DNA of 64,000 nt, taken from the NCBI RefSeq assembly GCF_003018255.1, contig NZ_CP027440.1. One strand, given 5' to 3'. The stretch is from Escherichia coli (GTDB taxonomy: Bacteria > Pseudomonadota > Gammaproteobacteria > Enterobacterales > Enterobacteriaceae). Below the pieces are notes generated by a model. The model saw only the letters and a list, made by a program, of their open reading frames with translations. It was not told the origin of the DNA and did no database searches. The position numbers and the translations under genes are program-made. Of this stretch, positions 740 through 3,328 are shown piece by piece. Each line of letters begins with the position of its first letter. Position 1 is the stretch's first letter.

Positions 740-1417
740 ATGAGTGCGTCGTTGGCGATCCTGACCATCGGCATTGTACCTATGCAGGAAGTTTTGCCGC
801 TCCTGACAGAATACATTGACGAAGATAATATTTCCCATCATAGCCTGCTGGGGAAGTTAAGCCGCGAAGAAGTGATGGCGGAGTACGCGCCAGAAGCAGG
901 CGAAGACACAATTCTCACATTATTAAATGACAACCAGCTGGCCCATGTTTCGCGTCGTAAAGTGGAACGAGACCTGCAAGGTGTGGTTGAAGTGCTCGAT
1001 AATCAGGGTTACGACGTCATTATATTAATGAGTACAGCAAACATTAGTAGTATGACCGCGCGTAATACGATCTTTCTTGAGCCGTCGCGGATATTGCCAC
1101 CGCTGGTTTCCTCTATTGTTGAAGATCATCAGGTGGGGGTTATCGTTCCGGTTGAGGAGATGCTGCCCGTTCAGACGCAAAAATGGCAAATTTTGCAGAA
1201 ATCGCCGGTATTTTCATTGGGTAACCCCATTCATGATTCAGAACAAAAAATCATTGATGCCGGGAAGGAATTACTGGCAAAAGGGGCTGATGTCATCATG
1301 CTGGATTGTTTAGGATTTCACCAACGTCATCGCGATTTACTGCAAAAACAGCTCGATGTTCCTGTCTTGCTCTCTAACGTATTGATTGCACGGCTGGCTG
1401 CGGAATTACTGGTGTAA
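740..1417 (+). CDS. aroM: AroM family protein (225 aa)
   Basis: 225-aa [25 protein letters not shown]...; matches AroM in sequence, length and position. Confidence 0.9.
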
Positions 1418-1488
1418 TTTTGCGTGACAGCCAGCGCCTCTGGCCCCTATAGTGAAGTAGATGTTCAACTACCAGACAGGGCCAGTTT

Positions 1489-1773
1489 ATGCTTCAAAGT
1501 AATGAGTACTTTTCAGGCAAAGTGAAATCGATCGGCTTTTCCAGCAGCAGCACTGGTCGCGCCAGCGTGGGTGTTATGGTTGAAGGTGAATACACCTTCA
1601 GCACCGCTGAGCCTGAAGAGATGACGGTAATCAGTGGCGCGCTGAATGTGTTACTGCCTGACGCGACCGACTGGCAAGTGTATGAAGCCGGTTCGGTGTT
1701 TAATGTTCCCGGTCACAGCGAGTTTCATCTGCAAGTTGCCGAACCCACCTCTTATCTGTGCCGCTATCTGTAA
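1489..1773 (+). CDS. ppnP: Pyrimidine/purine nucleoside phosphorylase PpnP (YaiE), 94 aa
   Basis: 94-aa [33 protein letters not shown]...; matches YaiE/PpnP (cupin-like). Confidence 0.9.
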
Positions 1774-1777
1774 TTCC

Positions 1778-1810
1778 TCGCCTTCCCCTTGAACGGGAGG
1801 GCATTTTTCT
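1778..1810 (+). terminator. Candidate rho-independent terminator after ppnP
   Basis: GC-rich imperfect hairpin (ccttcccctt gaac gggagggc) followed by ATTTTTCT directly after the ppnP stop. Confidence 0.4.
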
Positions 1811-1980
1811 GAAATGTCCTCTCTTTAACCCATAATAATATTTCCTTTGCTGGGATTTTTTCGATTTCCGATATATTCATAATTCATCAAGGTTGATATA
1901 AATATCAGCGAAGATCTCCAGATATTGTTGCGGAACTGGCGACGATAAAAGATAAATCAGATGATGAATGGTGGCGTGCA

Positions 1981-2259
1981 TTGCTGCAAAGTCGCAATGA
2001 TCATTTGCGCCAAACGGCATTGCACAACGCACATACCCCGGTGTTGTTAACGACATTGACTGAGTCTCAGGATCGGTCGCTGGCTATTAATAATCCACAG
2101 CTGGCTGCCGATGTGAAAACGGTGTGGCTAAAAGAGGAGCCATCATTACTTTTATTTGTCGATCAACCCGCTCTTTCGCAGTTACGGGATTTAGTGAAAA
2201 CCGGGGCAACGCGGAAAATTCGCAGTGAAGCGCGTCACCGGCTTGAGGAAAAACAATGA
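1981..2259 (+). CDS. Hypothetical small protein at the position of the K-12 ykiA locus; no ATG start, first canonical start is TTG
   Basis: Frame is open from the stop at 1894-1896 to the stop at 2257-2259 with no in-frame ATG or GTG; first TTG at 1981; no obvious Shine-Dalgarno. The ykiA assignment is from memory of the K-12 gene order. Confidence 0.3.
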   Translation: MLQSRNDHLRQTALHNAHTPVLLTTLTESQDRSLAINNPQLAADVKTVWLKEEPSLLLFVDQPALSQLRDLVKTGATRKIRSEARHRLEEKQ

Positions 2260-2364
2260 CACAACGCCCCTGGAGCAAGTTACAGCGTAAAACGCATAAT
2301 ATTGCTGCGCTAAAAATTATTGCCCGCCGTAGCGAATAATTATATGCCTGGTGTAGCTTCGTAC

Positions 2365-2397
2365 GCCGGATAAGACGCGGCAGGCGTCGCATCCGGC
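2365..2397. repeat. REP (repetitive extragenic palindrome) downstream of rdgC
   Basis: gccggataagacgcggcaggcgtcgcatccggc: imperfect palindrome with the canonical GCCGGATAAG...CATCCGGC REP signature. Confidence 0.75.
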
Positions 2398-2416
2398 ATT
2401 AAAGGTAAATCAGCAA

Positions 2417-3328
2417 TTAACGTTGTGCTTCGCCACCTAATCCTTCAATCAGGTTTTGAATTAACGCTGCCAGTTCACCAGTCATCAGGATGAAATCGGC
2501 ATCAAAACGCTGGGCGAAATCTTCACGGTCGATATCTTCGTTTTGATCGCGCAGCTCGTCGCAGAACTTCAGACGCTTGAGCGAACCATCGTCGCACATC
2601 ACAAACTGAATGCGCTGCTGCCAGTCGAGCGCCAGTTTAGTCACCACTTTTCCGGCTTCGATGTGATTGGTGATCTCTTCGCTGGTCAGATCTTGTTTCT
2701 TCGCGCGGATCACTCCACCATCTTCCAGCAGCGATTTCAGCTCGGCTTCATCAAGCAGCTGGAAGCCCTGTGCCGCGCTGCCGGAGCGAACCCATTCGGT
2801 CAGCGTCAGTTCAATCGGGTTTTCCATGCTCAATGGTACAACCGGTAACGACCCCAGGCTTTTACGCAGCAGTGCCAGCGTATCTTCCGCTTTTTTGGCA
2901 CTGGCGCAGTCCACCATAATCAAACCGTTAACCGTGTCGATCCACATCATTGTCTGGCTAAAACGGCTGAAAGCACGCGGTAGCAGAGAGTGCAGCACTT
3001 CGTCTTTCAGCGAATCTTTTTCGGTTTTCTTCAGCTTACGCGCCTGTTCCGCTTCCAGTTTGGCGATTTTCGCTTCCAGCGCCTGTTTAATCACCGGAGA
3101 CGGGAGGATTTTTTCTTCTTTGCGCGCGCAGATAACAATTTGACCATTGGCAACGTGCGTTAACGCATCGCTGTGCGATCCCATCGGAGGAACCCAGCCC
3201 ATCTTCGCCATGTCCTGGCTGCCGCATGGGGTAAATGCCATCGAGGCTAGCTGTTTTTCCATCTCTTCTGCACGCAACGAAATCTCGCGGCTAAGACGGT
3301 AAACCATTAAATTTTTGAACCACAGCAT
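2417..3328 (-). CDS. rdgC: Recombination-associated protein RdgC (303 aa)
   Basis: Track ORF 2417..3400 trimmed to the internal ATG (plus-strand CAT at 3326-3328), giving [28 protein letters not shown]..., the RdgC N-terminus. Confidence 0.93.

Follow-up and report, generated by a model that had tools for sequence, protein, structure and literature searches.

Between ppnP and rdgC, the Escherichia coli DNA analysed here (64,000 nucleotides of contig NZ_CP027440.1, referred to as the window) carries an open reading frame that lacks an ATG. This raises the question of whether the frame is a gene with a rare start codon, a pseudogene or a chance opening in a non-coding spacer. The first-pass annotation had placed the frame at the ykiA locus and left these three options side by side. 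The locus name and both neighbours agree with annotation, and among the options the pseudogene proved right, ykiA being marked as a pseudogene in RefSeq and the frame being homologous to an intact gene. We are highly confident that window positions 1921-2259 are a non-functional 3' remnant (pseudogene ykiA) of an accessory gene, truncated by a deletion of ~1.94 kb. That the ORF is a pseudogene is already known from RefSeq and EcoCyc-derived annotation. The interval is composed of the following features.

1489-1773, plus strand: ppnP, the intact upstream neighbour (ORF and annotation at the equivalent place)
1780-1810, plus strand: intrinsic terminator of ppnP, an 8-bp GC-rich stem (hairpin 1780-1802) and a T-run
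1809-1836, plus strand: CTGAAA-16-CATAAT, a match to the sigma-70 promoter type within upstream sequence kept from the ancestral gene (consensus scan)
1897-1920, plus strand: initial 8 codons of the open frame, former 5'-UTR and putative junction filler, never coding (collinearity)
1906-1920, unstranded: deletion-1 junction, the left 10-nt repeat copy and then CTCCA (flank comparison)
1921-2259, plus strand: ykiA' remnant, codons 647-759 of a 759-aa DUF2773-family gene with the original stop (blastn, protein alignment, Pfam, annotation)
2245-2249, plus strand: GAGGA, the Shine-Dalgarno of ykiD (-6.2 kcal/mol)
2256-2339, plus strand: ykiD, 27 aa, its ATG overlapping the ykiA' stop as ATGA (annotated YkiD)
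2278-2287, unstranded: deletion-2 junction, microhomology AGTTAC(A/G)GCG (overlapping blastn HSPs)
2365-2397, unstranded: single REP hairpin between ykiD and rdgC (hairpin search)
2417-3328, minus strand: rdgC, the convergent downstream neighbour

The frame is delimited by an upstream TGA at 1894-1896 and a TGA at 2257-2259 and holds 120 sense codons plus the stop, as had been described. It was also confirmed that the frame has no ATG, that the only near-cognate codons upstream are ATT 1924, CTG 1936 and ATA 1945, and that the earliest canonical initiator is TTG 1981, which would open a 92-aa ORF. The statements that GTG is absent and that TTG 1981 is the sole standard initiator were mistaken, since GTG occurs in frame at 2041, 2113, 2122 and 2194, and TTG also at 2005, 2020, 2044 and 2056. 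The reported lack of a visible Shine-Dalgarno at TTG 1981 agrees with its weak anti-Shine-Dalgarno match (-4.9 kcal/mol versus -6.2 for ykiD), and none of the candidate starts examined in the remnant frame (near-cognate, TTG or GTG) has a convincing Shine-Dalgarno. TTG 1981 is the codon of Leu-667 in an intact 759-aa protein, a residue that is invariant in the close family alignment. The elements said to bracket the frame are real, as both the ppnP terminator hairpin and the REP hairpin were found; known RNA families gave only sub-threshold REP-like matches (REP-derived naRNA4) in 1600-2600. An antisense ATG ORF of 101 codons (2087-2392, minus strand), which starts within the REP element and runs across ykiA' and ykiD, is probably open by chance. 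The window had been taken implicitly as K-12, which is incorrect: positions 1400-2500 are 96.9% identical to MG1655 and 99.9% identical to E. coli strain 2014C-3338.

The identity of the remnant was established by homology. The frame matches Pfam DUF2773 (PF10971) over the whole 81-position model, with E = 8e-38 and 128.9 bits against a gathering cut-off of 25. By blastn its DNA aligns with 97% identity to the 3' terminal part of an intact gene, and its translation matches residues 647-759, the C-terminus of the intact 759-aa protein, at 88% identity. The ORF is composed of 8 codons of former 5'-UTR and junction, followed by 112 codons and the stop of the ancestral C-terminus. Relative to the O157 allele, the window remnant carries a 1-codon deletion and 7 amino-acid changes; the count of nucleotide changes gave 8 nonsynonymous and 1 synonymous. 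With homology to an intact gene elsewhere and the loss of essential parts (~1.94 kb, including the ATG and codons 1-646), the frame belongs with truncated gene remnants; it is not a full-length DUF2773-type protein of ~760 aa, of which it retains residues 647-759 only. In near-identical genomes, RefSeq/PGAP labels the equivalent of window 1921-2259 as a 'DUF2773 domain-containing protein', incomplete and missing its N-terminus (pseudo), and the same 'incomplete; missing N-terminus' label was found in every remnant-type genome fetched. The 120-codon frame is open because it is genuine former coding sequence, short and only a few percent diverged, and because the 8 leading UTR/junction codons happen to contain no stop.

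To define the first deletion, the intact O157-type allele (L004) was used as the blastn reference, against which the window splits into three collinear blocks. Block 1 (window 1400-1915) corresponds to L004 3463-3978 and stops 2 nt short of the start codon of the intact gene, which spans L004 3980-6259. Block 2 (window 1921-2287) corresponds to L004 5918-6287, and block 3 (window 2278-2500) to L004 6650-6872. Deletion 1, of ~1.94 kb, lies between imperfect 10-nt direct repeats, CAGTGA[A/G]GAT. The left copy is retained, as CAGCGAAGAT in the window and CAGTGAAGAT in most alleles. Its ancestral flank, just upstream of the ATG, reads CAGTGAAGAT/TATG, and the right flank, at codons ~641-644 of the intact LHM10-1 allele, reads CAGTGAGGAT/AGCGATATTG. 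In all remnant alleles the junction is GAAGAT-CTCCA-GATATTG. The 5-nt CTCCA (window 1916-1920) matches neither ancestral flank, and a simple repeat-to-repeat deletion would leave AGC; CTCCA may be filler DNA or a later change. The window, K-12, ST131, S3, YJ1 and Escherichia sp. MOD1-EC7003 all have an identical CTCCA junction, which suggests that deletion 1 happened once. In the proposed sequence of events, this ~1.94-kb deletion in the ancestor of most E. coli would have joined the 5'-UTR of the gene to codon 647, stripping the start codon, signal peptide, beta-helix and most of the solenoid and keeping the ancestral promoter region and 5'-UTR.

This anatomy also settles what kind of lesion removed the start codon. 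The first-pass annotation had proposed that a conserved upstream ATG in relatives would argue for a start-codon lesion in K-12. The comparison favours a lesion, but the ATG stands 1.94 kb upstream in the intact allele. A start-codon point mutation is ruled out, the intervening sequence having been deleted together with the ATG, the signal peptide and 646 of the 759 codons.

The downstream ykiD has a parallel history. It was found that ykiD (2256-2339) descends by an in-frame deletion from a gene for a 151-aa SF0329-family protein and encodes the N-terminal 11 aa of that protein joined to its C-terminal 16 aa. Deletion 2 is exactly 372 bp (456 - 84; 124 codons, in frame) and is bounded in the SF0329 gene by AGTTACAGCG at codons 8-11 and by AGTTACGGCG at codons 132-135, giving as product YkiD, MTQRPWSKLQR/KTHNIAALKIIARRSE. 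The parental Shine-Dalgarno, ATG and stop are kept, and over the 20 nt upstream the window does not differ from O157. A second, independent 372-bp deletion at the AGTTAC(A/G)GCG repeats would have cut the SF0329-family gene, which lay downstream and was translationally coupled, down to the 27 codons of ykiD, and both deletions may have arisen by microhomology-mediated slippage or illegitimate recombination. With 27 of 151 residues kept, YkiD is without the conserved SF0329 core (H26, C27, D56, D122-R124 and others), and the 27-aa product gave no match to the SF0329 HMMs PF25753 and NF049912, its descent being shown by DNA alignment only. Among alleles, YkiD drifts through R11H, K19R, R25C and a shifted stop in B2-type alleles. 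SF0329 genes in general may occur in arrays of orphan immunity-type genes.

The ancestral cassette was then characterized from its intact copies. The N-terminus of the 759-aa protein is signal-peptide-like, MNRINILVICMVLFFMTGNACA/TEW, with an A-x-A site conserved in orthologues, and is read as a predicted export signal. It is followed by a small beta-helix (about residues 65-176) and a long LRV/HEAT alpha-solenoid (model pLDDT 91.5). An exhaustive HMMER search returned 169 representatives at E < 1e-3, of which ~40 are full-length (735-820 aa, 20-35% identity); family members match LRV_2, LRV and HEAT, and an N-terminal module is found by itself as well. The two ancestral genes are AT-rich (42.4% and 44.7% GC versus 51.8% for the window), consistent with acquired accessory DNA. 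PADLOC gave no defence-system match for the ancestral gene pair. Our best guess, held with low confidence, is that the intact 759-aa protein is an exported binding or scaffold protein.

The state of the locus was surveyed in complete E. coli genomes, 5,426 in all. Of these, 4,543 were counted as remnant type, with at least 80% of a 647-bp segment of the window, 444 (mostly O157:H7) carry the intact cassette and up to 474 show an S3-type state; the 80% thresholds overlap, so that these three counts slightly exceed the total. S3-type genomes keep the deletion-1 junction, have lost the other remnant sequence and carry a full-length (sometimes frameshifted) SF0329 gene. In at least one genome the whole ppnP-rdgC interval is replaced by IS1; strain VL7S7 has an IS1A element there (L011 1748-2445) and neither remnant. 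About 9% of E. coli genomes are without the remnant segment entirely. At the O157-type site, where the two genes are I6H03_RS17215 and I6H03_RS17220, a 2,280-bp gene (759 aa, DUF2773) overlaps by ATGA a 456-bp gene (151 aa, SF0329), and strain LHM10-1 carries an intact cassette at the same ppnP-rdgC site. Escherichia sp. MOD1-EC7003 (L017 2883-4006) combines deletion 1, with the identical CTCCA junction, and a full-length SF0329 gene, and represents the predicted intermediate.

Only 2 differences separate the K-12 remnant from the 3' end of the LHM10-1 intact allele, and the window remnant is closest to the O157 allele. That the two remnants are nearest to different intact alleles and yet share one junction implies that recombination within the locus followed the deletion.

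Species-representative genomes were scanned with a close alignment of the family. Escherichia sp. E4930, E. whittamii and Escherichia sp. E1V33 have the intact 759-codon gene at the same site, with 72-73% identity, and a 49%-identical homologue lies at an unrelated locus (sprT/galP) in another enterobacterial assembly. In these three Escherichia genomes SF0329 was lost by an independent deletion that left a 21-codon stub, MRLRRKTHNIAALKIIIRRSE (L006 7270-7345; L015 and L016 at ~5280). The right end of that deletion is only a few bases away from where deletion 2 ends in E. coli (L004 ~6650), and this shared region may be a deletion hotspot. An obligatory, toxin/antitoxin-like pairing of the two ancestral genes was considered and rejected: the large gene persists in E. 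whittamii-like species that have lost SF0329, S3-type E. coli have SF0329 but not the large gene, and no neighbouring genes are conserved around distant homologues.

Selective constraint was compared between intact and remnant copies. For the intact gene in E. coli versus E4930, dN/dS is 0.11-0.12 over codons 1-646 and 0.24-0.26 over codons 647-759, and intact copies are under purifying selection. Across 14 remnant alleles, 31 nonsynonymous and 16 synonymous variant codons were counted (pN/pS about 0.6-0.7), and about 25:11 (N:S) of these variants are absent from intact alleles. Replacements strike the family-invariant residues W716, P706 and I703. The lineage of the window has lost 3 bp, and strain YJ1 has a +1 frameshift close to the junction; 13 of the 14 alleles retain an open frame. 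Fisher's test on the remnant N:S ratio, with 113 codons only, gave p = 0.17 in comparison with the corresponding segment of intact genes and p = 0.009 in comparison with the whole intact gene. The 47 variant codons include no stop, where a rough estimate expects ~2, which makes this count uninformative. Taken as a sequence comparison, the variation points to relaxed constraint, which for 113 codons is not significant alone.

Two published studies of K-12 bear on expression. The ykiA promoter is active by lacZ fusions and has a start site mapped by 5'-RACE; it is activated by BglJ-RcsB, with a binding site centred 79 bp upstream (PMC3950696). The sigma-70-like match at 1809-1836 is a candidate for this promoter. 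YkiD was found by immunoblot as a chromosomally tagged 27-aa protein in K-12 grown in rich medium (PMC6001520, Table 1). As the promoter is active and YkiD is made, the remnant is transcribed as a ykiD leader; we infer that the remnant itself is untranslated and functionless. Several observations sit awkwardly with the pseudogene reading: nearly all sampled remnant alleles (13 of 14) have kept an open frame, the nonsynonymous excess in this segment taken alone lacks significance, RNA exists with ribosomes near it, given an active promoter and a translated, overlapping ykiD, and CTCCA is not explained by a simple repeat-to-repeat deletion.

On a speculative view, which we consider improbable, the scar is not inert, and either YkiD or an ATT/TTG-initiated or leaderless-like solenoid fragment has been co-opted as a micro-protein after decay of the cassette. 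If true, this would be an observable birth of a small protein out of a decayed gene, for which Escherichia still harbours every intermediate allele.

A related proposal is that the remnant is still a gene, in which a weak or rare start (ATT 1924 or TTG 1981) yields a ~92-111-aa LRV/HEAT fragment with some function. The largely preserved frame described above, the inducible upstream promoter and a pN/pS below 1 could be read in this way, as could the position of ATT 1924, 9 nt past the ancestral GAAGA, and an older K-12 annotation that contained a 113-aa YkiA (PMC3950696, Table 1). However, every candidate start is an internal codon of the intact protein and has no Shine-Dalgarno, leaving the rare-start option raised at the outset without positive support. 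The product would also have no signal peptide, no beta-helix and none of 85% of the solenoid, its family-invariant residues are substituted, the segment is missing from about 9% of genomes, and EcoCyc/RefSeq and PGAP both call it a pseudogene. On this balance a surviving gene is very unlikely.

We judge it just as unlikely that the remnant is kept in cis as the 5' leader of ykiD, supplying promoter distance, the GAGGA and perhaps RNA structure, with YkiD as the selected product. The ykiD Shine-Dalgarno does lie inside the last codons of the remnant, the ATGA overlap has been maintained, each of the 13 remnant-type alleles containing the segment has ykiD, and the protein is detected in K-12 (PMC6001520). 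But YkiD is itself a deletion scar that has lost the conserved core of SF0329, its sequence drifts between alleles, the Shine-Dalgarno needs only about 15 nt of the remnant, and S3-type genomes do without both the remnant and ykiD. The last option, a non-coding spacer with a chance ORF, would account for the missing ATG and Shine-Dalgarno between a terminator and a REP, but it is refuted by the homology to the intact gene end (DUF2773 E = 8e-38; 97% DNA and 88% protein identity) and retains practically no probability.

The pseudogene reading gives the missing start codon a trivial cause, and an unusual initiation mechanism is not needed. It also means that, YkiD being a deletion scar, detection of a small protein by immunoblot need not imply function. 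The ppnP-rdgC site presents a complete decay series (intact, deletion 1, deletions 1 and 2, deletion 1 with loss of the remnant, and IS1 replacement), which could be of use in teaching or in benchmarking pseudogene callers. In the literature searched, nothing relevant was found on DUF2773 or SF0329, nor was there an account of the anatomy of the two deletions, of every intermediate allele, of YkiD as an in-frame SF0329 scar or of DUF2773 as no more than the C-terminal end of ~760-aa proteins. Such results matter at the level of curation and are no new kind of biology. For curation, DUF2773 is only the tail of a family of ~760-aa beta-helix/LRV proteins with predicted export.

Compared with known systems, the window is closest to K-12 ykiA (b0392), an annotated pseudogene with the same locus, deletion junction and reading frame. 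The K-12 feature (408609-408950) starts at the exact equivalent of window 1921, the position at which homology to the intact gene sets in. The window represents another strain, 96.9% identical here, and differs from K-12 by a 3-bp in-frame deletion (HTPV-LL vs HTPALLL) and several amino-acid differences. With the intact WP_120795310.1 (759 aa, O157:H7-type) and its Escherichia orthologues, the remnant shares the site, the stop and the ATGA overlap and corresponds to residues 647-759; unlike them, it has neither start nor signal peptide, has no beta-helix (about residues 65-176) and is missing most of the alpha-solenoid. The Pfam model PF10971 (DUF2773) likewise covers only the last 81 residues of the ~760-residue family, and its boundary seems to have been set by pseudogene fragments, with no structural domain behind it. 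Downstream, ykiD derives from the SF0329 family (PF25753 / NF049912) minus 124 internal codons, and its product in the window is identical to K-12 YkiD (b4732).
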